Virus genome (UHGV): UHGV-0324072
Source of the DNA: a virus
DNA length: 43,215 nt
Strand: one strand, 5' to 3'
The notes below the pieces were generated by a model. The model saw only the letters and a program-made list of their open reading frames with translations. It ran no database searches and had not been told where the DNA came from. Made by a program: the position numbers and the translations under genes. Each line of letters opens with the position of its first letter. Position 1 is the first letter of the stretch. This document shows positions 1,801 through 26,175 of the stretch, piece after piece.

Positions 1801-1829
1801 ACTATAATAGCGAACTATTCACATGTCAA
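1801..1829 (-). promoter_or_regulatory. sigma70-like promoter (minus strand): -35 TTGACA, 17-bp spacer with ATAGTTCGCTAT palindrome, -10 TATAGT
   Basis: rc of 1801..1829 reads TTGACA-N17-TATAGT; same architecture at 38774..38802 and 42333..42361. Confidence 0.55.
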
Positions 1830-1893
1830 TGGGCTTTTCTAAAATAATTAATATGGTACTATTCACATATCAACTGACTAAGGAGTAATTGAC

Positions 1894-2109
1894 ATGCAAC
1901 CATCTGAACTAGGCATCCGTGTAGAACAACGCCGCAAAGAACTCGGCATCTCCCAGCGCCGTTTGGCGGCCCTGACCGGCGTTTCCCAGGGCGCGATTAA
2001 CCAACTGGCACTTGGAGTAACTCAGGACGTCCGCCCGGCAACGCTGTTCAAACTGGCGGAAGTTCTGGAAGTAGACGCCAAGTGGCTGGCGTTAGGTGAA
2101 GGGGCTTAA
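1894..2109 (+). CDS. XRE/Cro-type helix-turn-helix transcriptional regulator (71 aa)
   Basis: ORF track; ELGISQRRLAALTGVSQGAINQL HTH-like segment; RBS AAGGAG 9 nt upstream. Confidence 0.6.
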   Translation: MQPSELGIRVEQRRKELGISQRRLAALTGVSQGAINQLALGVTQDVRPATLFKLAEVLEVDAKWLALGEGA

Positions 2110-4558: not shown

Positions 4559-4846
4559 CCGTTTAGCCAACCCTTCCAGCAAATTTTTATACTCTTCAAA
4601 ATATTCCTCGACCAAATCATCGCCGAAATAGAAGTCGATATACTCGAGATTATCTCTTACGTTAAGCGATGCCGACATGGTGCTTAGTTGGCGTAAGCTA
4701 ATTAGCTTCATTTCTGTTTCTACGCAGAAAGGCCGGTAGGTATCAAGATGGCAAGAGATATTGAAGCATAAAGCGAACTCTCCGGCCACGGAGTGAACCA
4801 TATACACTTCGTTTTCTGCTTTATTGTGGAAAATTACGCCTTTCAT
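4556..4846 (-). CDS. hypothetical protein (96 aa), coupled to AlpA-like regulator gene
   Basis: ORF track; ATG 4846 overlaps stop of upstream gene (ATGA). Confidence 0.5.
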   Translation of the reverse strand: MKGVIFHNKAENEVYMVHSVAGEFALCFNISCHLDTYRPFCVETEMKLISLRQLSTMSASLNVRDNLEYIDFYFGDDLVEEYFEEYKNLLEGLAKR

Positions 4847-5025
4847 TTCACGTTCTCCTTAATCCATGCTTCGACTTTATTACGGTCAAATGTTCCCGGT
4901 AAACGGCGGCCCATAACCTTAATACAGCAGTCAGGGAATTTGCCGCTGCGCAACCAGTTATTAATGGTCTGACGTGTCACCCCGATACGCTCGGCTACCT
5001 CATTCTGTGTCATGTAATGTTGCAT
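4843..5025 (-). CDS. AlpA/excisionase-family HTH DNA-binding protein (60 aa)
   Basis: ATG at 5025 (RBS AGGGGA); MTQNEVAERIGVTRQTINNWLRSGKFP typical AlpA-type HTH; track start is an upstream alternative codon. Confidence 0.55.
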   Translation of the reverse strand: MQHYMTQNEVAERIGVTRQTINNWLRSGKFPDCCIKVMGRRLPGTFDRNKVEAWIKENVK

Positions 5026-5056
5026 TTTTATATCCCCTGTTTGTTTAGTGAAACCG

Positions 5057-5085
5057 AGTATAGGATAGCGGGAATGTAAAAGCAA
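5057..5085 (-). promoter_or_regulatory. candidate sigma70 promoter for AlpA-like operon (TTGCTT-N17-TATACT, minus strand)
   Basis: rc of 5057..5085. Confidence 0.4.
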
Positions 5086-5122
5086 CCAATCCCTGCAATA
5101 TTTAATCTTTACAAAAAAGTTA

Positions 5123-5152
5123 TTGAAAGTTCTTGACACATGTTTGTATAAT
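5123..5152 (+). promoter_or_regulatory. candidate sigma70 promoter (TTGAAA-N18-TATAAT) facing a 350-bp ORF-free region
   Basis: TTGAAA 5123..5128, TATAAT 5147..5152. Confidence 0.45.
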
Positions 5153-5159
5153 GGTTTTG

Positions 5160-5380
5160 GGACTTGTATATATTACGGAGTTGACGAACCCTCCCCGAGG
5201 GATTCGTCAACCCCTCCCAGACAGCTGAGATGCTTGCCTTGTGGTTTAAGGATAAGTGTATCTAAATCTCATTTAAAGAAGTAACCCGCTGAAATATCTA
5301 CTGTTTCTTAATGTGCCGTAGATTCGCAACCGTAAAAATGTAACGATTATTGGGCAGGCCCTAAGCCTGCCCTTTAGTTA
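5160..5380 (+). ncRNA. candidate small non-coding RNA between promoter 5123..5152 and terminator 5353..5380
   Basis: no ORF over 11 codons on plus strand; 13-bp stem-loop 5181..5210 near the 5' end; GGGCAGGC-ctaa-GCCTGCCC plus TTTAGTT terminator at 3' end. Confidence 0.25.
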
Positions 5381-5444
5381 CCAAGTAATAAGAATAAAGG
5401 CACAACAGTTTCGAAAGAATCACAACGGCAACGTAACTATTCTC

Positions 5445-5473
5445 TTGCACACCACAACATAATAGGATACTAT
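5445..5473 (+). promoter_or_regulatory. early promoter, class TTGCAC-N17-TACTATTCA
   Basis: TTGCAC 5445..5450, TACTAT 5468..5473. Confidence 0.5.
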
Positions 5474-5507
5474 TCACTTATCGAAACGAGACAGAGGAGT
5501 GAGGGTT

Positions 5508-6126: not shown

Positions 6127-6129
6127 GTT

Positions 6130-6273
6130 ATGAGAGAAGCATTCGAACGATGGGCCGTAGTCGAGGGTCTGCCGGTTAACAAGGGTTCGAAGAAAGAGTA
6201 CCTGAACGTTAAGACGCGTCTTGCGTGGCGGGCGTGGAAAGCTGGTGCGCAAGCTGTGATGAATAAGGGGTGA
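6130..6273 (+). CDS. small hypothetical protein (47 aa)
   Basis: ATG 6130, GGAGGA RBS about 10 nt upstream; fills gap between tracked ORFs. Confidence 0.35.
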   Translation: MREAFERWAVVEGLPVNKGSKKEYLNVKTRLAWRAWKAGAQAVMNKG

Positions 6274-6276
6274 TTT

Positions 6277-6516
6277 ATGGGCGAGTGGATTAAGTGTAGT
6301 GAGATGCTGCCAGGTAATGGGTATACAGATAAAGAGTTCCTGGTGTATGAAACGTTAAATAACGCAGTTCAACACGATTATTACATCGTTCCTGATGACG
6401 GGAGAAAGCCTTTCTGGAATAACTACGATAAGTACGTGACGCACTGGATGCCGTTACCCGAGCCGCCAGAAGTGTTATGTTATACTGTAACAATAGTTTG
6501 GGATTTTACTGAGTGA
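6277..6516 (+). CDS. DUF551-like phage protein (79 aa)
   Basis: ORF track; C-terminal THWMPLPEPP motif recalled as DUF551 signature. Confidence 0.45.
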   Translation: MGEWIKCSEMLPGNGYTDKEFLVYETLNNAVQHDYYIVPDDGRKPFWNNYDKYVTHWMPLPEPPEVLCYTVTIVWDFTE

Positions 6517-6518
6517 CC

Positions 6519-6555
6519 TACGCTGCTACACAGCAGCGTATCATTTTTCTCATTT
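6519..6555 (+). terminator. rho-independent terminator
   Basis: TACGCTGCT-acac-AGCAGCGTA then TCATTTTTCTCATTTTTG. Confidence 0.55.
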
Positions 6556-6633
6556 TTGTTCTATTTCACCAAACGCAACAATCGAAGCGACTATTGCGGG
6601 AGACGCAACAATACAAACACCAATAAAATTTAC

Positions 6634-6662
6634 TTGCACGCTGGGATAGAATAGGCTACTAT
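6634..6662 (+). promoter_or_regulatory. early promoter, class TTGCAC-N17-TACTATTCA
   Basis: TTGCAC 6634..6639, TACTAT 6657..6662. Confidence 0.5.
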
Positions 6663-6691
6663 TCATTTACACAAACGAGAGGAGAGATAAT

Positions 6692-6961
6692 ATGGTACAG
6701 AGATATGAGGTAAAAGCGTGGGGCCTGCCAGAGCCTGAGATGGCTGAGTACGCATACGGCGATTATGTAGAGTACGACAGCTATAAGGAACTGGACGACT
6801 ATTACCAGGAACGTCTAGCCGACGCCGACAAGGAAATAGAAGGGCTTGTGTCGAGACTGGCAGAAGTAAACGCCGAGCTACAGAAATACAAAGACCAGTA
6901 CCCTGATTACGTCGAGTGCGCGAACTGCGGGTCGGTTACACATGTGGAGGGGGTGGAGTGA
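6692..6961 (+). CDS. hypothetical protein (89 aa)
   Basis: ORF track; RBS GAGGAGAG. Confidence 0.5.
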   Translation: MVQRYEVKAWGLPEPEMAEYAYGDYVEYDSYKELDDYYQERLADADKEIEGLVSRLAEVNAELQKYKDQYPDYVECANCGSVTHVEGVE

Positions 6962-7254
6962 TGTCGTTAGCAACTGACATCCTGAAACGAAGCGGCCTTG
7001 CGCCGCTGTCACCGAGAGCGAAGACACGTATACACAAGCGTCGCCGTAACGTGCTGTACCCAGAGATACAAGAACGGCGTAAAGCTATCCGCGCCTGTGG
7101 ATTCCAGAACGGAAAGGCCGTGAATCTCGGTGAGTTTAAAACAAAGGAACGCGCAGCTATCGCGAACCGGCTATTTAATTACTGGAAATCGCTGGGGTAC
7201 GATGATATTCCGACGAAACCACAGAGACGACAATACATCTGGAGACATAAATGA
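6961..7254 (+). CDS. basic hypothetical protein (97 aa)
   Basis: ATG 6961 overlapping upstream stop; track start 6916 is an alternative codon. Confidence 0.45.
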   Translation: MSLATDILKRSGLAPLSPRAKTRIHKRRRNVLYPEIQERRKAIRACGFQNGKAVNLGEFKTKERAAIANRLFNYWKSLGYDDIPTKPQRRQYIWRHK

Positions 7255-7691
7255 CTACTATCGCGTTTGACGGAAAGACAATGGCCTGTGATACCCGTGT
7301 TGTGTGCGGGAGTAACTGTTACAACACAGACACAAAGATATACGAGAACGAATTTGTTGTTATTGGGGCGGCTGGCGATGCAGGGGTTGGTATCCTTTTA
7401 GTGGAGGACGATAGTATTTTAGTGCCTAAGCACTACGATTTTGATTTCTCTGCCTTGGTGTGGGTTAAAGACATCGAAACGTTGTGTAGGGTGGAGTTCT
7501 ATAAATCTTGGGATTGTGCTCTTAGTTTGGTTATTCAGATTGCGGACAGCTTTTCCGCCGTTGGTTCAGGCGCCCCTTATGCCCTAGCGGCTATGGAATG
7601 TGGGTATTCGGCGCAAGGTGGTGTAGCAGTTGCATCGAAGTTCTACCCTGACACCGGCGGCAAGATTATTACCAAACAACTATTAGGATAA
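7251..7691 (+). CDS. HslV/proteasome-beta-like N-terminal nucleophile (Ntn) hydrolase (146 aa)
   Basis: N-terminus MTTIAF (Thr directly after Met) and AVGSGAPYALAAM resemble HslV TTIV and IGSGGPYAQAAA; ATGA coupling to upstream gene. Confidence 0.45.
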   Translation: MTTIAFDGKTMACDTRVVCGSNCYNTDTKIYENEFVVIGAAGDAGVGILLVEDDSILVPKHYDFDFSALVWVKDIETLCRVEFYKSWDCALSLVIQIADSFSAVGSGAPYALAAMECGYSAQGGVAVASKFYPDTGGKIITKQLLG

Positions 7692-7750
7692 TTCCTAACC
7701 GTGCTATCCTCCAGTTACTGCATACTTAATACGCACCTGGAGGGTTCATC

Positions 7751-8059
7751 TTGGATAAATTTACTGAAACAGTGACTGGGTGGCTTCTGGCAGCCGCACT
7801 AGCTGGTGGGGTAATCGGACTACGACAACATAAGTCCGCTATTTCCGGCCCTATCGACGGATTCTGCTTTATTGCAACTGGCTTCACTTGCGCCGTATTT
7901 GGCGCGCCTCTCGCCGCTCAATGGTTCGGTATTACCGGAGAGCGCGAGATAGCTGGCCTCGGATTCATCATCGCAATTCTCTGGATGCCCATCTATTCCC
8001 GTCTCTCCGGTATCGTCGCCGGAGAATACATCGCACGTCGAGGAGGCACAGATGAATGA
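7751..8059 (+). CDS. putative holin (three predicted transmembrane segments)
   Basis: TTG start 7 nt after GGAGGG; hydrophobic stretches GWLLAAALAGGVIGL, FCFIATGFTCAVFGAPLAA, IAGLGFIIAILWMPIY; sits upstream of endolysin. Confidence 0.45.
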   Translation: MDKFTETVTGWLLAAALAGGVIGLRQHKSAISGPIDGFCFIATGFTCAVFGAPLAAQWFGITGEREIAGLGFIIAILWMPIYSRLSGIVAGEYIARRGGTDE

Positions 8060-8324
8060 ATTATTCTGGTTCGGCGGTATGCTGGCAATCGGAGGCACAT
8101 CGCTGTTTAATGTATATCACCCCAGCGTGGATGACGGATTATTTGGCCGTGTGCTATATATCCTGACCGCTATTGTCTGCGCCGCAGGATGTATCCACCT
8201 GTTACAGGGCAGCATGTCTCCGACGCTGCCTGAGACATTAATCACATTAGTTGCGCTGCGCCAGATTCGTCAGACGTGGCTGTCATACGGAGGACATAAG
8301 CGTGTCTCGAAATATTTCAGATAA
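8052..8324 (+). CDS. membrane protein, putative second holin/antiholin (two transmembrane segments)
   Basis: ORF track; ATG overlaps end of holin gene. Confidence 0.4.
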   Translation: MNELFWFGGMLAIGGTSLFNVYHPSVDDGLFGRVLYILTAIVCAAGCIHLLQGSMSPTLPETLITLVALRQIRQTWLSYGGHKRVSKYFR

Positions 8325-8414
8325 TGGACTTACCGCAGATAAGCTGCGCGAGGTTTTACACTACGACCCCGATACCGGAGTTTTCGCGAACCATAAATTA
8401 CGGGAAGGTGCTTT

Positions 8415-8900
8415 ATGAGAAACATTAGCAACAATGGCATCAAATTCACCGCCGCGTTCGAGGGATTCCGCGGAACTGCGTATCGTGCTACGCCAAATGA
8501 GAAGTACCTGACTATTGGGTACGGTCATTATGGGCCAGACGTAACGCCAGGCAAGACCATCACCCCGGGACAAGGCCTCCTGTTACTGAATCGTGATATG
8601 GCTAAGGCCGTAGCTGCGGTTGACGCAGCAGCACACCATTCATTGACACAGGCACAGTTCGATGCAGTGTGCGACCTGGTATACAACGCAGGTGCTGGTG
8701 TGATTGCTGCTACTACCGGCACGGGTAAGGCACTGCGTTCTGGTGATATTGCAACGCTGCGGGCTAAGCTGACACTGTTCATCAACCAGAACGGCAGACC
8801 GTTACTTGGTCTGCGCCGCCGTACTGCCGGTCGTCTGGCGCTGTTCGACGGTAAACCGTGGCAAGAGGCAGAGGCTATCGGGCGCGCGGTGAAAGGTTGA
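8415..8900 (+). CDS. endolysin, GH24 phage lysozyme
   Basis: FEGFRGTAYRATPNEKYLTIGYGH catalytic Glu-Asp-Thr lysozyme motif; RBS GGAAGG. Confidence 0.85.
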   Translation: MRNISNNGIKFTAAFEGFRGTAYRATPNEKYLTIGYGHYGPDVTPGKTITPGQGLLLLNRDMAKAVAAVDAAAHHSLTQAQFDAVCDLVYNAGAGVIAATTGTGKALRSGDIATLRAKLTLFINQNGRPLLGLRRRTAGRLALFDGKPWQEAEAIGRAVKG

Positions 8901-8964
8901 CACCTGAGACTAATCCGACGATACTTAAATCACCTCCTGTTCCATACCTCTGCTCTCCAGTTTT

Positions 8965-8998
8965 ATCCCGGCCCTGACCCAGCCGGGATTTTTTTTAT
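8965..8998 (+). terminator. rho-independent terminator after endolysin
   Basis: TCCCGG...CCGGGA hairpin followed by TTTTTTTT. Confidence 0.65.
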
Positions 8999-9018
8999 CT
9001 ATTTTCTGCAATGACTAG

Positions 9019-9047
9019 TTGACTATTACCTACGACCCTATTATATT
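9019..9047 (+). promoter_or_regulatory. sigma70-like promoter TTGACT-N17-TATATT
   Basis: TTGACT 9019..9024, TATATT 9042..9047. Confidence 0.45.
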
Positions 9048-9080
9048 TACTCCATCGACAACGAGAACGGAGTAGAGAAG

Positions 9081-9278
9081 ATGAGTAACGTACAGACAAT
9101 CGCAATAACCGAGGAACTTGAAGCCAAATGTATCGCATCAGTTATAGGGAATGGTTCGGTGGAAAAACTACAGATGAGGGCCGCTGCGGGCTACATACGC
9201 AGGGCTAATAGTGCGATGAATGATTCCTTACGTAAACGTTACCTCATGAAAGCGTTAGAAATTCTGGAGAATAAGTAA
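9081..9278 (+). CDS. hypothetical protein (65 aa)
   Basis: ORF track. Confidence 0.45.
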   Translation: MSNVQTIAITEELEAKCIASVIGNGSVEKLQMRAAAGYIRRANSAMNDSLRKRYLMKALEILENK

Positions 9279-9427
9279 TGAAAATCACAGATATTGAGGC
9301 ATTCAAAGACGCACAACTGATGGCACGTATCGCCGTTAGTAACCTTAGCAACAGCATCCCGGCAGACGCGTTCTGGTTCGCTGCGATGCAGACACTTAAA
9401 GCAGCATATGCAGGAGAGAAGAAATGA
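9278..9427 (+). CDS. small hypothetical protein (49 aa)
   Basis: ATG overlaps upstream stop (TAATG) and downstream start (ATGA). Confidence 0.35.
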   Translation: MKITDIEAFKDAQLMARIAVSNLSNSIPADAFWFAAMQTLKAAYAGEKK

Positions 9428-9621
9428 AAGTTAAAGCAGCTAAAATTCTCTGGTTACCCGCCCTTGACTATGTCACAGAGGGTAAAGTGTATGATGTATA
9501 CAACCCGACAGCTACTGGTTTCGGTTATATAGACTCCGACGACGACTGCCATATTTTCATAGACTTTGGTAACGATGACGGTGATGGTTTCCACGGCGTT
9601 AAATGGGAGGTTGTAGAATGA
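9424..9621 (+). CDS. hypothetical protein (65 aa)
   Basis: ORF track. Confidence 0.45.
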   Translation: MKVKAAKILWLPALDYVTEGKVYDVYNPTATGFGYIDSDDDCHIFIDFGNDDGDGFHGVKWEVVE

Positions 9622-9776
9622 GCGAACAAGGTCAAGTAAGCCAACCACTACTGGTAGGCCGTAAAGTCAGCCACACCCCGTTCCCGACACGCGAGGAACT
9701 GATGAAACGTAACAGTTTCCCTGGGCCGGACAAGAACAAGTATCTCAATCGCATGTGGGGAGAGCGTAAAGTATGA
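9618..9776 (+). CDS. small hypothetical protein (52 aa)
   Basis: ATGA overlaps at both ends. Confidence 0.35.
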   Translation: MSEQGQVSQPLLVGRKVSHTPFPTREELMKRNSFPGPDKNKYLNRMWGERKV

Positions 9777-9997
9777 CTAATAACGAATATGAAAAAGCAT
9801 GCGTCGAATCCGCGACCGGTGAATCTGAAATAGCGTGGATTGACACCCACATCGAACACCACTTACGGCAGGTGGATAATCTTATGGAACGCCGCCGTGA
9901 GCTGATTAGCCGCTTCAACATGAACAAGGGGCGCGCTATTTCTGACGATTTCGATGGGGATTACCGAAATGGCGATTTTTATGAGGGAGCCGAATAA
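9773..9997 (+). CDS. hypothetical protein (74 aa)
   Basis: ORF track. Confidence 0.45.
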   Translation: MTNNEYEKACVESATGESEIAWIDTHIEHHLRQVDNLMERRRELISRFNMNKGRAISDDFDGDYRNGDFYEGAE

Positions 9998-10296
9998 TGC
10001 CTAAAATCACAATTGCATCGCTCGAGCGCCGTATTATGGTGCTTGAGTCGGAGAAACAGACGTTAGGCGGGCAACTGTCAATTAACGGTGAGTTTCAACT
10101 GGAGGCGTATAAAGAACTTCTAGAGGCGTTTAAAGAGCTACAAGCCATCGCGTCTGACATAGAAAATATGATTGGATTGTTGCAATCCGGGGAGTGGGCC
10201 GAACACTGCACTAAATCGGCGTTAGGAAAACGGCTTGAGACGGAGATTACTGACATGCTGAGTTGTCTTGTTGAGGCGCCAGATGAGCACGCCTGA
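9997..10296 (+). CDS. hypothetical protein (99 aa), coiled-coil-like
   Basis: ORF track. Confidence 0.45.
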   Translation: MPKITIASLERRIMVLESEKQTLGGQLSINGEFQLEAYKELLEAFKELQAIASDIENMIGLLQSGEWAEHCTKSALGKRLETEITDMLSCLVEAPDEHA

Positions 10297-10465
10297 GCCG
10301 GTAGTTATCGATGGCGTCCTGTGGAAACCTTACTCGGTTAACCACATCGACGCCGATGGGAAGAAGTTCAGTTTCTACATTTTTGCGATTAGCCGCGAGC
10401 ACGCTGCGTGTGTAGTAGACGATATACGAGAAACGGCGTGGCTTGGCGATGAGATAGTGGTGTGA
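10283..10465 (+). CDS. hypothetical protein (60 aa)
   Basis: ATG 10283 in frame of track ORF 10268..10465. Confidence 0.4.
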   Translation: MSTPEPVVIDGVLWKPYSVNHIDADGKKFSFYIFAISREHAACVVDDIRETAWLGDEIVV

Positions 10466-10552
10466 GAGCATGAGTCTTGAGGTTGTTATAAGTCTGGTTG
10501 GTCTTAGTTACTTCATTGGGCTATTGGTCGGTTTTCTGTGGGGTAGATACTA

Positions 10553-10723
10553 ATGTTCAGCGACATCAACGCAGCAATCGAAGAAGCAATCTGGCGCCGT
10601 TACAACGGCGAGCAACAGCGTCACTTCTGCCTGGTGCAACGTGGTAACATGGTCGCCGTGGTGCAGGACCGCGATAACAAATATCCGAATGCGATGTGGA
10701 CAACGAGGAATTTCTTAGGATGA
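10553..10723 (+). CDS. small hypothetical protein (56 aa)
   Basis: ATG 10553; plus-strand frame in gap between tracked ORFs; ATGA coupling to next gene. Confidence 0.35.
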   Translation: MFSDINAAIEEAIWRRYNGEQQRHFCLVQRGNMVAVVQDRDNKYPNAMWTTRNFLG

Positions 10724-10956
10724 TTACCAGCATTCCTAACCTGATTAAAGAATATGGCACGATGGCCGAGACATGCCGACAAACCGGCATCAACGAAATG
10801 ACTATTGCTAAGTACAGCAAAGATGTTAACTGCGATCGCCACGTAATTTTTAACAACCGTCTGATGACGCACGTTAAGACAAGCCCGGTGTTATTCACGC
10901 GCCGGGGTATCACTAAAACAGAGCAACGCATTGCTAAAGAGGAGAGTGGGGAATGA
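10720..10956 (+). CDS. hypothetical protein (78 aa)
   Basis: ATG 10720 in frame of track ORF 10696..10956. Confidence 0.4.
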   Translation: MITSIPNLIKEYGTMAETCRQTGINEMTIAKYSKDVNCDRHVIFNNRLMTHVKTSPVLFTRRGITKTEQRIAKEESGE

Positions 10957-10982
10957 GACTACTAGTCTTTCCGAATTCCTGG

Positions 10983-11010
10983 GCTATCGCCGTAGCTATC
11001 GCCGTAGCTA
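10983..11010. repeat. tandem direct repeat GCTATCGCCGTA x2 plus partial third copy
   Basis: copies at 10983..10994 and 10995..11006, then GCTA. Confidence 0.7.
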
Positions 11011-11070
11011 ACGACCATTACGGCGGCGACGGTAAACGAGCGCCACGCCACGGCCTATATAACTGATACA

Positions 11071-11094
11071 AGCCCTCTACGGAGGGCTTTTCTG
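11071..11094 (+). terminator. rho-independent terminator upstream of terminase genes
   Basis: AGCCCTC-tacg-GAGGGCT then TTTCTGT. Confidence 0.5.
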
Positions 11095-11187
11095 TACATC
11101 CCGCCCAATCCCCTTATATAATCCCTTTAGACGCGTAGGGCGCGTCTGGTGCGCTCTGATGGTCAGACGCATATGCAAGGGGATTCT

Positions 11188-11733
11188 ATGAAGCTGAAAC
11201 TTAAGCAGCCATCGCCAGAGGTGGTACAAGCTGCACATGAAGAAGCTGTTAGCGCAAACCGTCGCCGTAAACGACCGCGCGGTAAACAGAGCATTTATCA
11301 ATCATCCCGTAATTCCGCCGCGTTGTGGGACCCGGACTATTGCGATGCATTGATTCGTTTCTTCGACCGCACGTCGTGGGAGCTTGTGCCAACGTCTAAG
11401 GGTGACGAACGCCCACTGATTCAGGATAAACCACCGTCACTGGCCCGCTTCGCCTTACACATCGGAGTCACTATCCCGATTATTAAGCTTTGGCTGCGTG
11501 AGATTCCCGCATTTGCAGAAGCCTGGGAGACAGCACAGGCGCTGGAAGATGCTTATTTCACTGAGACAGGGGCCGCCGGTATCTCGGCTACGTTTGCTGC
11601 CGCTAAGCTGGGCCTCGGCAAAGAGAAACCAGTCGAATCCGCCGAAGAAACAGCACCGACTGAGATTATTTTCAGTGTTGCAGAGCCTGTAGGTAAAATC
11701 GTAACAACGAATATGGGCGAGGCAGAGGAATGA
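11188..11733 (+). CDS. putative terminase small subunit
   Basis: ATG 11188 (RBS AAGGGGA); basic N-terminal region; immediately upstream of and overlapping terL; called by position. Confidence 0.45.
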   Translation: MKLKLKQPSPEVVQAAHEEAVSANRRRKRPRGKQSIYQSSRNSAALWDPDYCDALIRFFDRTSWELVPTSKGDERPLIQDKPPSLARFALHIGVTIPIIKLWLREIPAFAEAWETAQALEDAYFTETGAAGISATFAAAKLGLGKEKPVESAEETAPTEIIFSVAEPVGKIVTTNMGEAEE

Positions 11734-12980
11734 GTATTCAGCTATCCGCACCACAGGCGCTGTTCCTGAATTGTGATAACAAGTACAAAGCTTATGTCGG
11801 TGGGTTCGGCAGCGGAAAGACATTCGTAGGCTGCCTTGACCTGCTTACGTTTATGCTCAAGCACCCTGGTACGCGCCTGGGCTACTTCGGCCCGACATAC
11901 CCGGCCATACGTGACATCTTCTACCCGACATTCGAGGAAGCGGCTAACCTCCTCGGCCTCGATGTGCTGGTTAAATCCGGCGACAAAGAGGTCGTTGTTA
12001 CGCGAGGCAAGACGGTGCTCGGTACGGTTATCTGCCGTTCAATGGATAACCCCGGCTCGATAGTTGGTTTCAAAATCGCTGCGGCGGTCGTGGATGAACT
12101 GGACGTATTGAGCCGTGAGAAAGCCGAGCTGGCGTGGAACAAAATCGTCGCCCGTATGCGTCTGGTTATCCCGGGCGTAATTAACCACATCTCCGTCACC
12201 ACGACACCGGAAGGGTTCAAGTTCGTCTACTCCAAGTTCAAGGAGAACCCGACACCGAGTTACTCTATGGTGCAGGCATCAACTCATGAGAATGCGAGGT
12301 TCCTGCCGCCGGATTACATTAGCTCGCTAACAGAGACTTACCCGGCGCAACTGATTAACGCGTATCTGAATGGTGAGTTCGTCAACCTGACATCCGGCAG
12401 CGTGTATTACGCCTATGACCGCCGTAAGCACCGCAGCAAAGAGACAATTCAACCAGGCGACACTTTGTACATCGGGCAGGACTTCAACGTTACGAAGAAC
12501 GCAAGCGCCGTGTATGTACAACGTAAAGACGGCTGGCACGCGGTAGCAGAACTGAAGGGCCTGTTCGATACGCCGGACACCGTGCGCGTAATCACCGAGA
12601 AATGGAAGTCGCAAGGCCACCGCATCGTCGTTTACCCCGACGCCAGCGGCAAGAACCGAAAAACCAACTCAGCGTCAATCTCTGATATTGCATTACTCCA
12701 GCAGGCTGGGTTCGATGTTCGCGCTAAATCAGCCAACCCCCCGGTTAAAGACCGTGTTTTAGCCGTGAATACCGCGCTGGAAAAAGGTAAGCTGTGGATT
12801 AACGACCACTTATGCCCTGAGATAGCGAAGACGCTGGAGCAGCAGGCATATGACGATAACGGAGAGCCAGCTAAAGACGGCATCATTGACCATATGGCAG
12901 ATGCGCTCGGCTATCCTGTAGTTTACGAGATGCCGGTGGTTAAACCCGTAATCAACATCCCGGTGACTTTCGCACTTTAA
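11730..12980 (+). CDS. terminase large subunit
   Basis: Walker A GGFGSGKT near N-terminus; 416 aa; ATGA overlap with upstream gene. Confidence 0.8.
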   Translation: MSIQLSAPQALFLNCDNKYKAYVGGFGSGKTFVGCLDLLTFMLKHPGTRLGYFGPTYPAIRDIFYPTFEEAANLLGLDVLVKSGDKEVVVTRGKTVLGTVICRSMDNPGSIVGFKIAAAVVDELDVLSREKAELAWNKIVARMRLVIPGVINHISVTTTPEGFKFVYSKFKENPTPSYSMVQASTHENARFLPPDYISSLTETYPAQLINAYLNGEFVNLTSGSVYYAYDRRKHRSKETIQPGDTLYIGQDFNVTKNASAVYVQRKDGWHAVAELKGLFDTPDTVRVITEKWKSQGHRIVVYPDASGKNRKTNSASISDIALLQQAGFDVRAKSANPPVKDRVLAVNTALEKGKLWINDHLCPEIAKTLEQQAYDDNGEPAKDGIIDHMADALGYPVVYEMPVVKPVINIPVTFAL

Positions 12981-12992
12981 GAGGATTATTCA

Positions 12993-14462
12993 ATGTTAAC
13001 TATGCACGGTCAGAATCAGGGTGTTAAGACAAAACACCGGGAATGGCTGCATCACTTCGATAAATGGCAGAAGGTGCGCCACGCACTGGAAGGCGACCTT
13101 ATTCGCTACCTCCGTAATGTAGGGAAGAACGAGCCAGACCCTACCTACGCAGCCCAGCGCCAGGAAGAATACGAGAACGGTGCTATCTGCTACAACTTCA
13201 CAAAACGTACCCTGGCCGGGATGGTGGGGTCGGTGATGCGCAAAGACCCTGAGCAGATTATCCCGCCTGAACTGGAGTACCTGTTACGCAATGCTGACGG
13301 TTCCGGTGTCGGGCTGTGGCAGCACGCGCAGGACACTTTGATGGAGATTGATTCTGTGGGTCGTGGCGGGTTGCTGGTGGACGCCCCGGAGACAGCCGCG
13401 GCAACGGCGGCAGAACAGAACGCGGGGTTATTAAACCCGGTCATAGCATTCTACACCGCTGAGAACATCATCAACTGGCGACTGACTCGCATCGGTTCTG
13501 TTAACCGTGTGACGATGGTTGTGTTGCGCGAGGTATGGGAATACTCGGAACCGGGCGCAGAGTTCGAAACAAAGTTCGGGGAACAGTATCGTGTTCTTGA
13601 CCTGATTGAGGGCCGCTACCGCCAGCGCATTTACCGCTTCGATGCCGAAGGTGGCGCTCAGGACGAAGTAATCGAAATCTTCCCGGAACTTGGCGAACAG
13701 TTACGCGGCAAAATCCCGTTCACATTCATCGGGGCAAGCAACAACGATGCGACCATCGACGATGCTCCTTTGCTGCCGTTGGCTGAGCTTAATATCGGGC
13801 ATTTCCGCAACAGCGCGGACAATGAGGAGTCGAGCTTCGTTGTAGGCCAGCCCACGCTGTTTATCGCCCCCGGCGAGAACATGAGCATGGAACAGTGGAA
13901 AGAGGCCAACCCTCACGGTGTGCGCATGGGGTCGCGCTCAGGCCATAACATCGGTTACGGAGGTAATGCGTTTCTTGTCCAGGCGGGGGAGAATAACCTT
14001 GCCAAGCAGAACATGCTGGATAAAGAGAATCAGGCAATCCAGATTGGCGCACAGCTTATCACCCCGACGCAGCAAATCACCGCAGAATCGGCCCGCCTGC
14101 AACGCGGCGCTGATACTTCAGTTATGGCGACAATCGCGCGTAACGTAAGCATGGCGTATACAGACGCGTTGCTCTGGGTAGCTGCGATGCTCGGATTGCG
14201 TGAAGGCACAGAGGTTGATTTCAAACTGAATATGGAGTTCTTCCTGCAACCGATGACCGCTCAGGACCGTGCACAGTGGATGGCGGACATTAACGCCGGT
14301 TTGCTACCCGCCACTGCTTACTATGCTGCGTTGCGTAAGGCGGGTGTAACTGACTGGACTGACGAGGATATTCAGAACGCTATCGAGGATGCGCCTCTGC
14401 CGTTAGGTGCTGTTACTCAGGTGGCAGGGGAGATTCCGCAGTCGGTGCAGCAGCAGGAGTAA
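12993..14462 (+). CDS. portal protein
   Basis: 489-aa ORF directly after terL; RBS AAGAGGA; called by position and size. Confidence 0.65.
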   Translation: MLTMHGQNQGVKTKHREWLHHFDKWQKVRHALEGDLIRYLRNVGKNEPDPTYAAQRQEEYENGAICYNFTKRTLAGMVGSVMRKDPEQIIPPELEYLLRNADGSGVGLWQHAQDTLMEIDSVGRGGLLVDAPETAAATAAEQNAGLLNPVIAFYTAENIINWRLTRIGSVNRVTMVVLREVWEYSEPGAEFETKFGEQYRVLDLIEGRYRQRIYRFDAEGGAQDEVIEIFPELGEQLRGKIPFTFIGASNNDATIDDAPLLPLAELNIGHFRNSADNEESSFVVGQPTLFIAPGENMSMEQWKEANPHGVRMGSRSGHNIGYGGNAFLVQAGENNLAKQNMLDKENQAIQIGAQLITPTQQITAESARLQRGADTSVMATIARNVSMAYTDALLWVAAMLGLREGTEVDFKLNMEFFLQPMTAQDRAQWMADINAGLLPATAYYAALRKAGVTDWTDEDIQNAIEDAPLPLGAVTQVAGEIPQSVQQQE

Positions 14463-14467
14463 AGAAA

Positions 14468-14487
14468 AAGGCCCCGCTAGGGGCCTT
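14468..14487. terminator. bidirectional hairpin terminator AAGGCCCC-gcta-GGGGCCTT
   Basis: perfect 8-bp GC-rich stem between convergent genes. Confidence 0.6.
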
Positions 14488-14491
14488 AGCT

Positions 14492-15145
14492 TTAACGTAT
14501 ATTAGCCGCACATTTACGCACAACCCGAGGTATCGCCTCTTTCAGTTCACCCCATGTATTAACGGCCTCCATGTCAAGAAGTGTCACCAGAGCTTTCTGG
14601 ATGTCACTTCGCAACTGATTGGTCTTCGCATCCTGAGAGTCCCATGTATCGAAACCCGTTACGTCGCGGATATCTACGGATTCCTTTACCGCTTTAGCCA
14701 CCTGTATGAAGTGTCCACTGTGGCCAATTCTTCCCTCCGTGCGCTCAATCATTCGACTAACGGCAGCGTTAAGCTCGACAAAGCTCACCGCGCCAATGTT
14801 TCGTAGTTCTACCTGCCGTTGTGTGATAAAGCGGTCGATAACGAGGAAATGGAAATAGGCGCTGTATTGCTCAGCAATATATACTGCCAGATGGAGACAT
14901 GCAAAGGTGCGACCGTTTCGGCCTTTCGTCGCCCTTATGGCATTCTCGATTCCGAGTTGTTTTTCGCATTCCTCCTTGAAAATCTTGAAGCCATCCGTTG
15001 CCATGACCTGGCGAAGCTCTCTTGCCCCCATGCCGTTGTCTAAACGCCAACGGTTCATCTGGTCAACCAGCTCGTTTACGTTAATAAAGTTTTCACGGTC
15101 AAAAGTGATTTCTCCATAAGGGAACTCTAATGTTTGCAGTTTCAT
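14492..15145 (-). CDS. KilA-N domain protein (217 aa), reverse-oriented insertion
   Basis: KGRNGRTFACLHLAVYIAEQYSAYFHFLVIDRF resembles the KilA-N core; ATG 15145 with AGGAG RBS. Confidence 0.5.
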   Translation of the reverse strand: MKLQTLEFPYGEITFDRENFINVNELVDQMNRWRLDNGMGARELRQVMATDGFKIFKEECEKQLGIENAIRATKGRNGRTFACLHLAVYIAEQYSAYFHFLVIDRFITQRQVELRNIGAVSFVELNAAVSRMIERTEGRIGHSGHFIQVAKAVKESVDIRDVTGFDTWDSQDAKTNQLRSDIQKALVTLLDMEAVNTWGELKEAIPRVVRKCAANIR

Positions 15146-15172
15146 GCGTATTTCTCCTGTTTAAGTGTACGT

Positions 15173-15202
15173 TTAAATTCTACATTTGAATGTAGAATTT
15201 AA
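15173..15202. promoter_or_regulatory. perfect 13-bp-arm palindrome (candidate operator) upstream of KilA-N gene
   Basis: TTAAATTCTACAT-ttga-ATGTAGAATTTAA; overlaps candidate minus-strand promoter TTGATT-N18-TAGAAT (15177..15206). Confidence 0.5.
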
Positions 15203-15287
15203 TCAAGCTCTTTTTAACCTTAAATGTGTATGATTATGCCAATACGTTACCGACTGATATGATTGTCATATCGAAACAGGAGGGTAT

Positions 15288-16331
15288 ATGAGCTTACTGA
15301 CATCTCTAATCAGCCACCAGATTTGGCTGCAACGCGCCGCATCCGGTGAAGTAAAAGACCTCGCACCATTCATTCAGGAAATGCGGGACGAAATCAAACG
15401 GCAGGTGCTGTTATTCGGTGACGACGGTCGCAGCACTGCGCGACTGAATAAACTGTTACGCGACCTGGAAGAAGCACTAACCGGTATTACGGGTGGCTGG
15501 CAAACAAAGCTAACAGACGACCTTAAGGAACTGGCGGCGTACGAGGCTGAGTGGAACGTAAAGACACTGACCGCCAACGTAGACGCGGAATTTGTTACGC
15601 CTACCGCTGAGCAGGTATGGGCCGCTGCCGAGTTTCAACCATTATCATTGAGCGACAAGCCCGTTGATTTCACCAAGCTGATGTCTGGATGGGGCGAAAC
15701 GGAAGTAGCACGTCTTGTAACTGGAGTTAAGATGGGCTTTGTGCAAGGTCAAACCACACGGCAGATTGTTAAGAATGTTGTTGGCGCTGGTGGACTAGCC
15801 GACATCTCAGAACGTAACGCGACTACGGTAATCCGCACCGCGCTGTCCCACGTATCCAACGAGGCCCGTAACGAGACGTACCGCCAGAACGACGACATCA
15901 TCGAGAAATATGAGTGGGTGTCAACTTTGGACAGCCGTACCAGCACGATTTGCAGGGCCAGAGACGGAATGACGTGGGAAATCGGTAAAGGCCCGATGCC
16001 ACCAGCCCATCCTAATTGCCGAAGTACCACTGCACCGGTAATCAGTTCAGAGTTCGACTTCCTTGATAAAGGCGCAAAACGTGCGGCTAAGGGTGCGGAC
16101 GGCGGTACTCAGGTAAGCGCAGACACCACCTATTACGAGTTCCTGAAACAACAACCAGCATGGTTTCAGGACCAGGCGCTCGGTCCTGTTCGCGGTAAGA
16201 TTTTCCGTAACAGCGGTATATCGCCGGAAGAGTTTCGCGTAATATCTGTAGATGGTTTCGGGAATCCGCTCACGCTTAAGCAGATGGCGGAACTCGATAA
16301 ACGTGTTGCTGATTATCTGAAAGGGGATTAA
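15288..16331 (+). CDS. head morphogenesis / minor head protein
   Basis: 347-aa ORF after portal; RBS AGGAGGG; called by position. Confidence 0.55.
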   Translation: MSLLTSLISHQIWLQRAASGEVKDLAPFIQEMRDEIKRQVLLFGDDGRSTARLNKLLRDLEEALTGITGGWQTKLTDDLKELAAYEAEWNVKTLTANVDAEFVTPTAEQVWAAAEFQPLSLSDKPVDFTKLMSGWGETEVARLVTGVKMGFVQGQTTRQIVKNVVGAGGLADISERNATTVIRTALSHVSNEARNETYRQNDDIIEKYEWVSTLDSRTSTICRARDGMTWEIGKGPMPPAHPNCRSTTAPVISSEFDFLDKGAKRAAKGADGGTQVSADTTYYEFLKQQPAWFQDQALGPVRGKIFRNSGISPEEFRVISVDGFGNPLTLKQMAELDKRVADYLKGD

Positions 16332-16792
16332 TGACGGGCTTTTTCAAAGTAACTGATGTGCCGTCACGTCGCGTAGTCCAGTACGCTCGTGTGTCTGGCT
16401 CCGGTGAGAACGTAACCTACGTTGAGGATGAAAGTGTACTAGGTACACCTGTAGACGAGATGCCGTACGCAGACAAGACAGGTATCGCACTCTCTGCTGC
16501 TGGTATGCTTTATGAAATTCCGTATCTGGCTGACGCAGGCGATGTGTATTTCTCTGTACAACCGCAGGACGTTGAACTGGCAGATGGCAGCGCAACTATC
16601 ACTGTCGAAGTTAAGGCGGGTAAATCCCCCTATGCACTGGCCTGGTACAAAGACGGCAAGGAAGTAGTAAACGCGCCCGAAGAGGCTTTGTCTCTGACGG
16701 TTAACGCGGTCGGTGAATACTTCGTTAAAGTTACCGATTCCGATGGTGTAGCGGCCGTCAGTAAAGCAGCGAAGGTCACTAAGCCAGACTGA
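16331..16792 (+). CDS. Ig-like domain protein (153 aa)
   Basis: ALAWYKDGKEVV...GEYFVKVTDSDG Ig-like strand pattern. Confidence 0.45.
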   Translation: MTGFFKVTDVPSRRVVQYARVSGSGENVTYVEDESVLGTPVDEMPYADKTGIALSAAGMLYEIPYLADAGDVYFSVQPQDVELADGSATITVEVKAGKSPYALAWYKDGKEVVNAPEEALSLTVNAVGEYFVKVTDSDGVAAVSKAAKVTKPD

Positions 16793-16795
16793 TAA

Positions 16796-16816
16796 AAGGC
16801 CCCATTACGGGGCCTT
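16796..16816. terminator. bidirectional hairpin terminator AAGGCCCC-attac-GGGGCCTT
   Basis: between convergent genes 16331..16792 and 16822..17025. Confidence 0.6.
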
Positions 16817-16821
16817 AGTTT

Positions 16822-17025
16822 TCAACGGAATTTTGTGTTTAAATCCTGCTCATGGACAACCCTCAGAACAGTGTCATAATCCCCGTATCTTCCAGGTTCA
16901 AATATATCTAATGCCTTGTAAGCAGACATTGCGTCAGGGAAAACCTGCAGAACCTTTTTAACCCGGCACAAGTCACCGTCGAACTCTTCATCGAACTCTT
17001 GAACTACTTCGCAAATTGCATACAT
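16822..17025 (-). CDS. hypothetical protein (67 aa), reverse-oriented insertion with own promoter
   Basis: ATG 17025, RBS AGGAGG; promoter 17053..17081. Confidence 0.5.
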   Translation of the reverse strand: MYAICEVVQEFDEEFDGDLCRVKKVLQVFPDAMSAYKALDIFEPGRYGDYDTVLRVVHEQDLNTKFR

Positions 17026-17052
17026 TTTTCACCTCCTGTTTAAGTTAACTGA

Positions 17053-17081
17053 ATAGTACCCTATTATATTGGGGTGTGCAA
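17053..17081 (-). promoter_or_regulatory. promoter TTGCAC-N17-TACTATTCA (minus strand)
   Basis: rc of 17053..17081; 31-bp core almost identical to 26174..26204. Confidence 0.5.
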
Positions 17082-17133
17082 ACTATTTATTTACGTATTC
17101 CAGTTATTCCTCCGAATTGTAAATGTTGGAATA

Positions 17134-17149
17134 AACTATTCGAATAGTT
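17134..17149. promoter_or_regulatory. perfect 16-bp palindrome AACTATTCGAATAGTT (candidate operator)
   Basis: self-complementary; overlaps TTGACT (17148..17153) of a candidate plus-strand promoter. Confidence 0.45.
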
Positions 17150-17182
17150 GACTTTTCACTAAAAATATGATAAGCTCCACCT

Positions 17183-17383
17183 GAGCTTGTGAAGTATGAA
17201 CAAGCGACCGCGGCGCGGGCAGGTAACGGAGCGGGACGTAAGTCCTGAGTGTAGTTACGCTGACGCGTTCGGAAGGGCCATACTCTATTGCTTGTGTAAA
17301 AAGTAACTGGTTTACTGAGATTACGCCGTTTCTATGTTTAAATGATAAGGACTAGCGCCCCGCTTTATGGCGGGGCTTTACTT
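17183..17383 (+). ncRNA. candidate small RNA or leader transcript, ending at terminator 17357..17383
   Basis: about 200 bp with no ORF over 37 codons, between candidate promoter (TTGACT 17148 / TAAGCT 17171) and GCCCCGC-tttatg-GCGGGGC plus TTTACTT. Confidence 0.2.
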
Positions 17384-17400
17384 ATCGAGAAAGGGGAAAC

Positions 17401-17787
17401 ATGAATCTTAAAGCAACTGTCGTAGCAGGAGCATGTTTCATCATCCTGGTTTACACACACGGCATCTACCAGTATCGCAGCGGATGGAACGAAGGCCGGG
17501 CTAATCTCGTTTCGCAGCAACAGCAGAAAGCACAGGCTGAGTTAGCGAAGAAAACACAACGGCAGCAGCAGGATGAATCGAAGGCCGCCGCCGCTGACAA
17601 CGAAGGCAAGACGAAATCAGAGGTGATTACCCGTGAAGTCGTTAAGTACATTAAAACGCCTGGTCGCAGCGTGTGCACTTTTGACCCTGAGCGCGTGCAG
17701 CTCAAGTCCCGCGCCGTCGCCAACGCCAATTCCATCCCCGGATACGACGATGATGCAGCCGCCGTGCAAACTGGCGCAGCCAAGTAG
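17401..17787 (+). CDS. i-spanin (Rz-like)
   Basis: N-terminal transmembrane segment TVVAGACFIILVYTHGIY then Gln/Ala-rich coiled-coil region; contains the embedded o-spanin ORF. Confidence 0.55.
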   Translation: MNLKATVVAGACFIILVYTHGIYQYRSGWNEGRANLVSQQQQKAQAELAKKTQRQQQDESKAAAADNEGKTKSEVITREVVKYIKTPGRSVCTFDPERVQLKSRAVANANSIPGYDDDAAAVQTGAAK

Positions 17788-17896
17788 CGACGCTGATGAG
17801 GATTTGGCCGTCGACGTTCAGAATGCTGAATGCGTACGGCAACTGAGACTGAAAGTGTTCATGTTGCAGGATTACGTGAGGAATATTCTGGAATAG
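17633..17896 (+). CDS. o-spanin (Rz1-like lipoprotein), +1 frame, overlapping 3' end of i-spanin
   Basis: signal peptide with lipobox LTLSAC, proline-rich PAPSPTPIPSPD, Cys residues. Confidence 0.55.
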   Translation: MKSLSTLKRLVAACALLTLSACSSSPAPSPTPIPSPDTTMMQPPCKLAQPSSDADEDLAVDVQNAECVRQLRLKVFMLQDYVRNILE

Positions 17897-17978
17897 TTGC
17901 CTTGCATGTTGGAATAATTTATTCTTGACATGTAAATCCGGGTGGCCCGGGTTCCAACGTCCAGGGGACATACTGACT

Positions 17979-18680: not shown

Positions 18681-18682
18681 TA

Positions 18683-19732: not shown

Positions 19733-19746
19733 GGTTAAGCTATAAT

Positions 19747-19776
19747 CGAGAGGGACTTCGGTCCCTCTTTTCATTT
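19747..19776 (+). terminator. rho-independent terminator after capsid gene
   Basis: GAGAGGGAC-ttcg-GTCCCTCTT then TTCATTT. Confidence 0.6.
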
Positions 19777-19791
19777 ACTAAGAGGTAAATT

Positions 19792-20091
19792 ATGGTCAAG
19801 ACCGGAAAAGGCTTGCCGCGCAGCCTTCAGAATGTCGATTTCGGCGACTTTGATATCCCAGTCACGCCTGCTACTACCAGCGTAGTTGGTGGGGTTAAAA
19901 AGTCAGCTACTGTAGCCGCACCTGCGGCGGTTACCGCTGGTAAAGGAGCGCAGTCCGCCGCGGCACCGACTAAGGGAGAGTTCGACGCCCTTGTAGCGGA
20001 GTACAACAAACTCCGAACCGATGTTACCGCGCTGCGCACTACCGTAGCAAATCTGTTGACTGCGCTTAAAAACGCAGGAACCGTAAGCTAA
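19792..20091 (+). CDS. hypothetical structural protein (99 aa)
   Basis: ORF track; RBS AGAGG. Confidence 0.45.
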   Translation: MVKTGKGLPRSLQNVDFGDFDIPVTPATTSVVGGVKKSATVAAPAAVTAGKGAQSAAAPTKGEFDALVAEYNKLRTDVTALRTTVANLLTALKNAGTVS

Positions 20092-24373: not shown

Positions 24374-24398
24374 AAGGCCCCGAAAGGGGCCTTTTTTA
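24374..24398. terminator. bidirectional terminator AAGGCCCC-gaaa-GGGGCCTT plus T-run
   Basis: perfect 8-bp stem followed by TTTTTATT. Confidence 0.65.
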
Positions 24399-26147: not shown

Positions 26148-26175
26148 AATTATTTCCTCAGTAAGTTACAGGTGA

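Follow-up and report, generated by a model that had tools for sequence, protein, structure and literature searches.

What holds constant the spacer of a phage promoter, DNA that sigma70 does not read? The question is raised by the virus genome UHGV-0324072, a stretch of 43,215 nucleotides (nt) that was analysed whole and is called the window here, in which four sites share the -35 element TTGCAC, a 17-bp spacer conserved in its 3′ half and the same -10 element. The answer that we consider probable is that these sites are promoters for the host sigma70 that contain an operator of the phage's own 71-amino-acid (aa) Cro-like XRE repressor, which would turn transcription down genome-wide.

The pattern TTGCAC-N17-TACTATTCA has exactly four exact matches in the window, against 0.09 expected from shuffled sequences (0 of 100 shuffles reached four), and no further site in the window appears even when two mismatches are allowed. 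All four have the hexamers, the 17-bp spacer, the spacer 3′ halves and the -35-to--10 coordinates that a preliminary description of this DNA had given them. We refer to them as class A:

5445-5476, plus strand: promoter A1, with -35 TTGCAC at 5445-5450, -10 TACTAT at 5468-5473 and putative operator AATAGGATACTATT at 5461-5474; heads small open reading frames (ORFs) from the ATG at 5509, with a predicted transcription start site (TSS) at about 5480
6634-6665, plus strand: promoter A2, with -35 at 6634-6639, -10 at 6657-6662 and putative operator AATAGGCTACTATT at 6650-6663; preceded by a terminator at 6519-6540, it heads 6692-8900, including an HslV-like peptidase, two holins and an endolysin
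17050-17081, minus strand: promoter A3, with -35 at 17081-17076, -10 at 17058-17053 and putative operator at 17052-17065; heads a lone 67-aa gene (17025-16822) embedded in the head-gene cluster
26173-26204, minus strand: promoter A4, with -35 at 26204-26199, -10 at 26181-26176 and putative operator at 26175-26188; heads a 108-aa gene (26147-25821) and an SbcD-like exonuclease (25756-24626)

Judged from their sequence, the four sites are predicted to be host sigma70-type promoters working in the directions listed. TTGCAC matches the sigma70 consensus at three of six positions, with the TTG kept, and TACTAT at four of six, with T-12, A-11 and T-7; the spacer lies within the 16-18 bp of sigma70 promoters, and a short leader with a ribosome-binding site (RBS) connects each promoter to a gene. 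The end of the -10 element is 35, 29, 27 and 28 nt from the ATG at A1 to A4, respectively (ATGs at 5509, 6692, 17025 and 26147), and a GGAG-type RBS precedes the ATG at all four sites, in accordance with their earlier placement 20-40 bp upstream of genes with a good RBS. We assign these directions because A2 stands between two plus-strand genes, after the terminator at 6519-6540, with no usable -10 on its bottom strand, because the short distance from -10 to ATG is alike at all four sites, and because Jerseyvirus orthologues retain the TTG at a distance of exactly 17 bp, in -35 elements that read TTGTGT, TTGTAT, TTGCAG or, with 18 bp, TTGACG. A1, A3 and A4 are in divergent intergenic regions, and the strand opposite A4 carries GTTACA-N17-TATATT (26165-26193), which scores as a promoter directed at the tail genes; one operator at A4 may serve two back-to-back promoters.

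Other ways of reading the class A spacer were considered and rejected. A TGn extended -10 does not account for its conservation, as positions -15/-14 are GG, GG, GG and GT rather than TG; the stretch described earlier as an extended -10 is one arm of a dyad. A perfect TATAAT within the spacer was also dismissed as the true -10, since it lies 7 bp from TTGCAC and has a matching -35 only at A4. Reading class A in reverse, the orientation in which the published PHIRE motif (see below) is printed, fails at A2, where the bottom strand offers TCTATC without A-11 or T-7 and there is no leftward gene, while at A1 and A4 a second, divergent promoter in that direction is possible.

The dyad becomes visible when the two conserved stretches are read together. 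The 3′ half of the spacer (..AATAG) and the CTATT.. of the -10 are mutual reverse complements 4 bp apart, forming AATAG-N4-CTATT; written out in full as the proposed target of an XRE dimer it is AATAGGGTACTATT. The window holds 7 perfect copies against 0.03 expected, and 11 copies with at most one mismatch against 0.98 expected, and when repeated 18-mers are sought de novo, the dyad heads the list as a family of eight. Promoter and intergenic DNA makes up only ∼9% of the window and contains every perfect dyad, as well as 10 copies out of the 11 that have no more than one mismatch. The remaining copy, a one-mismatch dyad at 4188 inside the helicase-primase gene, was taken as the one chance match expected. 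The family of four that was first described is thus sound as class A but too small, since by the dyad it has at least eight members. Outside class A, dyads accompany promoters of two other layouts, which we call class B and class C:

1801-1829, minus strand: class B promoter B1, TTGACA (1829-1824), N17, TATAGT (1806-1801), with putative operator 1806-1819 in the spacer; heads 1769-1269 and downstream replication and recombination genes, wrapping round the window end
38774-38802, minus strand: class B promoter B2, TTGACG-N17-TATAGT, with putative operator 38779-38792; heads 38740-38549, a DNA methyltransferase and a helicase
42333-42361, minus strand: class B promoter B3, TTGACA-N17-TATAGT, with putative operator 42338-42351; heads a Gp2.5-like single-stranded DNA-binding protein (SSB), a family A DNA polymerase and an endonuclease
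9014-9047, plus strand: class C promoter C1, TTGACT (9019-9024), N17, TATATT (9042-9047), with the near-dyad ACTAGTTGACTATT at 9014-9027 over the -35; after the terminator behind the endolysin gene, it heads small ORFs and then the terminase and portal genes
17143-17176, plus strand: doubtful class C site, TTGACT (17148-17153) and (TGa)TAAGCT (17171-17176), with AATAGTTGACTTTT at 17143-17156 over the -35

Class B promoters are among the window's best sigma70 matches (10-11 of 12 positions) and are spaced along the leftward replication block, each with its operator entirely within the spacer. Predicted TSSs of the class A and class B promoters lie at 5480, 6669, 17046, 26169, 1794, 38767 and 42326, and those of the two class C sites at 9054 and 17183, all to within about 2 nt. 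At C1, Jerseyviruses keep the near-dyad with a mismatch in the opposite arm (AATAGTTGACTAGT). The site at 17143 is treated as doubtful because its AATAG arm occurs in only part of the Kagunaviruses and is missing in many.

Dimers of 434 Cro and repressor bind 14-bp dyads in which the outer bases are conserved and the centre is uncontacted. As in such a system, the dyads of the window overlap the -35, the spacer or the -10 of their promoters. They span -19 to -6 in class A, -25 to -12 in class B and -40 to -27 in class C, with centres at -12.5, -18.5 and -33.5, and their arms keep a fixed 9-bp register at these three different positions relative to the -10 and -35. The left arm of class A occupies the 3′ half of the spacer, and the -10 is the non-consensus TACTAT because the right arm supplies CTAT, four of its bases. 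The genes behind the dyad promoters are mixed, comprising small early ORFs, lysis genes, an exonuclease and replication genes. Such a mixture speaks for a regulon that spans the genome and against a single temporal class; with lysis genes in it, the regulon is described too simply as an ‘early promoter class’.

Further arm sequences also occur near these promoters. Extra single arms, AACTATTC and AAATAGTT, stand directly 5′ of the -35 elements of A1 and A3 (5435-5442 and 17082-17089), and an everted 16-bp palindrome, AACTATTCGAATAGTT, at 17134-17149 adjoins the rightward promoter at 17148. These could be auxiliary half-sites or remnants.

To follow the dyad across relatives, we compared XRE-gene loci of Kagunavirus (37), Jerseyvirus (11) and Cornellvirus-like phages (6), and a further sample of 75 stretches with the exact class A pattern. 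Perfect dyads number 2-6 per ∼20-kb locus in Kagunavirus, 2-4 in Jerseyvirus and 0 in the Cornellvirus-like loci, with ∼0.02 expected by chance. At orthologous sites in the 37 Kagunavirus and the 11 Jerseyvirus loci no base of either 5-bp arm varies, whereas drift is seen in the central 4 bp (TTCG, TTCA, TTAG or CTAG at B1; CGAA, CGAG, CACA, CGGA or CAGA at B2) and in neighbouring spacer bases. Across ∼100 distinct orthologous sequences the arms remain invariant and the centre variable, as in a 434-type operator. Because the class B arms are fixed in spacer DNA unread by sigma70, they point to a protein site and not to shared descent alone. As suggested earlier, a phage-encoded factor best explains the conservation beyond the sigma70 contacts. 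A total of 102 exact class A matches are spread over 42 IMG/VR contigs, with 2-4 per Kagunavirus-sized contig, and since the 96 distinct versions head differing downstream genes, the cassette is conserved and its cargo mosaic. In the 96 distinct Kagunavirus class A sequences (loci L085-L159) the whole of TTGCAC is invariant, including the CAC, whereas Jerseyviruses keep the TTG only.

A degenerate dyad scan of the Cornellvirus-like loci found three pseudo-dyads of the form A-W-T-A-S-N4-S-T-A-W-T at equivalent promoters; a de novo search for repeated 16-mers in the same loci was too noisy at 3 mismatches. Separately, some Kagunavirus loci (L008, L011 and L013 among them) have one more perfect dyad, AATAGGTTACTATT, placed where the gene before the terminator equivalent to 6519-6540 reaches its 3′ end; the window does not have this copy.

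Could this pattern arise with no dedicated factor at all, from duplicated promoter–leader cassettes and from sigma70 constraints (-10-like hexamers on both strands and bidirectional initiation), leaving the palindrome incidental? Several sites do share a leader, AAACGAGAGGAG(A), between promoter and start codon (5481-5498, 6672-6686, 1772-1789 on the minus strand and 9058-9076), and this leader, together with the RBS, favours cassette descent; the promoter–leader–RBS units look like duplicated cassettes and may be recombination joints for module exchange. The arms of the dyad resemble pieces of -10 elements (TACTAT, TATAGT, TATAAT), and a bidirectional arrangement would suit A1, A3 and A4 in their divergent regions, A4 with its scoring promoter on each strand, and the SE2 site at 33752, which reads as two back-to-back promoters. 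Bidirectional promoters nevertheless do not explain the dyad, because it is kept at A2, B2 and B3, which serve one direction only. An incidental palindrome is likewise hard to reconcile with arms that stay invariant in ∼100 orthologous sequences while the centre and adjacent spacer drift, in class B too, or with a 9-bp arm register that is fixed in three positions against the -10 and -35, and dyads of this type accompany homologous repressor genes in other genomes. We consider it improbable that no dedicated factor is involved.

The repeat has been noticed before under a different label. In phage fBC-Eco01, PHIRE found the 20-mer tgAATAGTa-ccTATTat-T at 7 sites, which were listed as ‘phage RNAP promoter’ (PMC9825357, text and Suppl. 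Table S2), and seven PHIRE ‘promoters’ were given for phage Golestan (PMC7203180). We give hardly any credence to the reading of the motif as a promoter of a phage-encoded RNA polymerase, which follows the label in published Kagunavirus papers. The large ORFs of the window are the helicase-primase, family A DNA polymerase, tape measure, tail proteins, tailspike, portal, terminase and helicase, with no RNA polymerase among them, nor is one present in the annotations of SE2 and close relatives. Moreover, the sites have sigma70 -35 and -10 hexamers at 17-bp spacing, and the motif, a palindrome, is found in either orientation with respect to transcription. The label was rejected, as no polymerase gene was found among the ORFs examined. 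Literature searches found no transcriptomic or TSS study of Guernseyvirinae phages, nor any account of how their transcription is programmed.

Which protein, then, would bind the dyad? A scan of ∼50 ORFs found no RNA polymerase, integrase, CI-type repressor or S24 domain, and only two recognisable DNA-binding regulators, which are listed here with the site next to the first:

1894-2109, plus strand: XRE/HTH_3 gene, 71 aa and Cro-sized, monocistronic, ending at the terminator 2098-2118; proposed operator-binding repressor
1850-1863, plus strand: putative weakened operator O2, AATATGGTACTATT, with one mismatch, at the XRE gene's own promoter
4843-5025, minus strand: HTH_17 (excisionase/AlpA-like) gene, probable true start ATG 5025, 61 aa; rival binder

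Against Pfam HTH_3 the XRE protein scores 49.7 bits, where the cut-off is 23. Among proteins of solved structure it is most similar to 434 Cro (E 8.5e-6, 71 aa, 39% identity), the DNA-binding domain of the 434 repressor (1.1e-5) and P22 C2, and its AlphaFold (AF2) model, with a predicted local distance difference test (pLDDT) score of 81, has the XRE fold, with template-modelling (TM) scores of 0.6-0.7 to 434 Cro, HipB and SinR. The 124-bp region upstream of the gene contains a perfect site (1806-1819) and an imperfect one (1850-1863), which fits autoregulation. O2 shares bases with a class-A-like -10, TACTAT (1857-1862), and with the region where an alternative promoter, TTCACA (1818-1823) and TAAAAT (1840-1845), would start, and its mismatch recurs in every Kagunavirus locus examined. 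The gene divergent from XRE encodes a 166-aa protein of unknown function (phrog_3127). The preliminary description had reported two direct repeats of the pattern ACTATTCACAT(G/A)TCAA flanking the XRE gene start. Both exist, AACTATTCACATGTCAA at 1813-1829 and TACTATTCACATATCAA at 1857-1873, but they do not flank it: both lie upstream of 1894, in the 124-bp divergent region 1769-1894. The first consists of the -35 and one operator arm of the minus-strand promoter B1, and the second is part of a degenerate copy of the B1 promoter–operator.

The main competitor of XRE is the ∼61-aa HTH_17 protein (4843-5025, minus strand), for which the dyad would be the operator, leaving XRE to act on a different target. 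Kagunavirus and Jerseyvirus, which have the perfect AATAG-N4-CTATT in common, also have HTH_17 proteins that are 82-84% identical. No HTH_17 was found in the Cornellvirus-like loci, where the perfect dyad is likewise missing, and the HTH_17 gene of the window is in the same long intergenic neighbourhood as A1. We prefer XRE because the Cornellvirus-like and the temperate CI-type loci keep A-W-T-A-S dyads at promoters or operators with no HTH_17 homologue, and because a palindromic 14-mer of 5-N4-5 form is the architecture of 434-type XRE proteins. Small excisionase-type helix-turn-helix proteins typically bind direct repeats, which counts against HTH_17, and the two sites adjoining the XRE gene fit XRE autoregulation. 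Between the XRE and AlpA-like candidates first named, dyad architecture, homologue loci and autoregulatory layout thus favour XRE and make HTH_17 an unlikely binder. As to the HTH_17 gene itself, the mechanical ORF (4843-5139, minus strand, 98 aa, GTG start) is probably too long: a GGGGA RBS stands at ATG 5025, and the resulting 61 aa fit the 56-aa Jerseyvirus homologue. Just upstream is a possible promoter, TTGCTT-N17-TATACT, without an operator.

A host protein, either an Escherichia coli or Salmonella transcription factor or a nucleoid protein, could also bind the dyad and be exploited by the phage. A conserved enterobacterial protein would account for arms that are the same in phages of two host genera although XRE has diverged, yet dyads of a related kind go with XRE homologues, relatives of the Pseudomonas-type cI included, in unrelated prophages, and we judge a host factor very unlikely. 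To our knowledge, the dyad matches no host factor site; the ARG box, for example, differs in arm spacing.

If XRE is the binder, the following mechanism can be proposed. Host RNA polymerase would initiate at the class A and class B promoters, while XRE would be produced from its own weakly self-repressed monocistronic unit and would accumulate in lytic infection. XRE dimers on operators centred at -12.5 and -18.5 would then occlude RNA polymerase, and the imperfect sites, at the XRE gene's own promoter and at the promoter at 9019, would be affected last. XRE would in this way be a Cro-like, autoregulated agent of genome-wide turn-down of early, middle and accessory transcription. What the sequences show is the motif, with its statistics, dyad nature, placement and evolutionary footprint, and the family of the protein; XRE binding, repression and its timing we infer.

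Several observations weigh against this proposal. Repressor sites at lysis- and late-gene promoters would require an escape mechanism. The invariant CAC of TTGCAC is explained by neither the promoter nor the operator. The XRE proteins of Kagunavirus and Jerseyvirus are only ∼48% identical and differ in the recognition helix (SQGAINQ versus SQSLITH), yet the AATAG arms are identical, and the Cornellvirus-like equivalents are only pseudo-dyads (ATTAG-N4-GTAAT, AATAC-N4-CTAAT); with this shift to ATTAG/AATAC, clean covariation of the XRE recognition helix with the half-site across genera was not obtained. HTH_17, in its conservation between Kagunavirus and Jerseyvirus, is distributed like the perfect dyad. 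Finally, the cassettes, with their common AAACGAGAGGAG leader, look paralogous, so that part of the similarity among the four class A sites reflects common descent.

A bolder proposal is that XRE and its operators, placed at practically all early, replication and accessory promoters, are a relic or a working immunity circuit in Kagunavirus and Jerseyvirus, therapy phages that are taken to be strictly lytic; the circuit could bring about whole-genome silencing, a non-integrated carrier or episomal state and superinfection immunity. Turbid plaques, immune ‘lysogens’ and a possibly episomal genome have been reported for Jerseyvirus SGP-C (PMC8790156). In contrast, XRE is without a C-terminal domain for cooperative, stable repression, and no integrated copy of the phage was found in 5,426 complete E. 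coli genomes, which leaves such a circuit a slim chance. A further hint at such a circuit is a complete Kagunavirus genome, matching the window at 6129-19857, whose database entry calls it a ‘plasmid’ of an E. coli isolate from blood (PLSDB CP088689.1, 44,086 bp); either a carrier state or contamination by a phage could lie behind this entry.

The genome in which the regulon would operate is assigned to Kagunavirus (Guernseyvirinae). Its first 20 kb are 91-93% identical to Kagunavirus genomes, among them the E. coli phages NTEC3 and vB_Eco_ORH_001, with the Salmonella Jerseyviruses more distant, and its gene content is typical for such 41-45 kb siphophages. A replication and recombination block (Gp2.5-like SSB, family A DNA polymerase, endonuclease, methyltransferase and helicase) runs leftward, as does the helicase-primase operon, while small ORFs and the lysis, packaging, head and tail genes run rightward, with a few inverted genes within the structural block. 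A minus-strand exonuclease gene (phrog_69) is apparently split by the window ends (42547-43215 and 1 to ∼600), from which we take the genome to be circularly permuted in the window; the operon that runs leftward from B1 therefore crosses the window boundary.

Further repeated or transcribed elements were observed elsewhere in the window. Near-identical GC-rich hairpins, AAGGCCCC-N4-GGGGCCTT, stand at 14467-14487, about 16795-16815, 24374-24393 and 36183-36202, form the second most repeated 18-mer family and, with T-runs on both sides at flips of gene orientation, look like shared bidirectional terminators. Two plus-strand units, 5123-5372 and 17148-17376, each consist of a strong sigma70-like promoter (TTGAAA-N18-TATAAT and TTGACT-N17-TGaTAAGCT, respectively), ∼200 nt without a convincing ORF and an intrinsic terminator. 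They are candidate small RNAs or leaders without an Rfam match; an Rfam scan of the whole window gave no hits.

Guernseyvirinae such as Kagunavirus and Jerseyvirus rank with the phages that are most frequently isolated and put forward for use in therapy and food biocontrol, and their genomes are variously called ‘free of lysogeny genes’ or ‘carrying a repressor’ in safety annotation. Reading the dyad as an operator would provide a wiring diagram of the whole genome, with about 8-10 promoters, one regulator, three registers and graded site quality. If XRE does bind, the 32-bp promoter–operator cassettes, in two strengths, would be ready orthogonal repressible promoters.

How does this arrangement compare with known systems? 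The repeat is already published, and the operator reading is its reinterpretation as the well-known Cro-type repressor/operator kind. The PHIRE ‘promoters’ of fBC-Eco01 and Golestan belong to the same sequence family (the reverse complement of ATAATAGg-tACTATTCa) and occupy equivalent positions at 7 sites per genome, but those papers give no mechanism, and the dyad, the sigma70 hexamers and the link to XRE go unmentioned in them (PMC9825357, PMC7203180).

The dyads also have counterparts beside homologous repressors. Two distant, full-length CI-type XRE homologues, L057 (230 aa) and L071 (220 aa), have S24-like C-terminal parts and recognition helices (GVSQGLIGQ and GVSQGTISQ) comparable to GVSQGAINQ of the window's XRE, and clusters of ATTAG/AATAG-N4-CTAAT/CTATT dyads lie on both sides of their own repressor genes (at -92, -68, -55, +733 and +758 in L057). 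Some dyads at CI-type loci are laid out as TTGACA-N7-dyad-TAATAT, which is the class B architecture. Other XRE homologues have 5-N4-5 dyads of their own: ACAGT-N4-ACTGT in the temperate Hafnia phage Meifeng, where the homologue is in the cro position opposite a CI-like gene, and TAAAG-N4-CTTTA, three times, in L058. The record of phage D3 likewise annotates three 14-bp operators of 5-N4-5 form, ATGGG-N4-CCCAT, beside a related cI. The prophage CI repressors (IMG/VR L057, L071-L073) and D3 cI therefore share homologous DNA-binding domains and 14-bp dyads with the system described here. They differ in being full-length, with S24-type C-terminal domains in temperate immunity regions, whereas here there is a DNA-binding domain only, in a phage without sign of integration.

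Close in kind, too, are 434 Cro and cI, with a regulator of 71 aa and the same fold, an operator that is a 14-bp dyad with a sequence-free centre overlapping the core promoter, and sites at the regulator's own promoter. In contrast to 434, no integrase, no partner CI with a C-terminal domain and no other HTH_3 or repressor-type match was found among the ∼50 ORFs scanned, and the half-site in the window is AATAG rather than ACAA(G/T); a lambdoid lysis–lysogeny immunity region, with a divergent CI with S24, tandem triple operators and an integrase, was not found. Single sites are instead dispersed over 8-10 promoters of a 43-kb lytic genome, not gathered in two tandem triplets, and they stand in three operator–promoter registers. 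In this dispersal the system resembles the regulon of the P1 C1 repressor, whose many operators are spread genome-wide, each embedded in a different promoter, although those operators are 17-mers without symmetry, C1 and XRE are not related, and P1 is truly temperate, with a plasmid prophage. What would set this Cro-type system apart is that its single operators stand, in three registers, at almost every promoter of a lytic phage.

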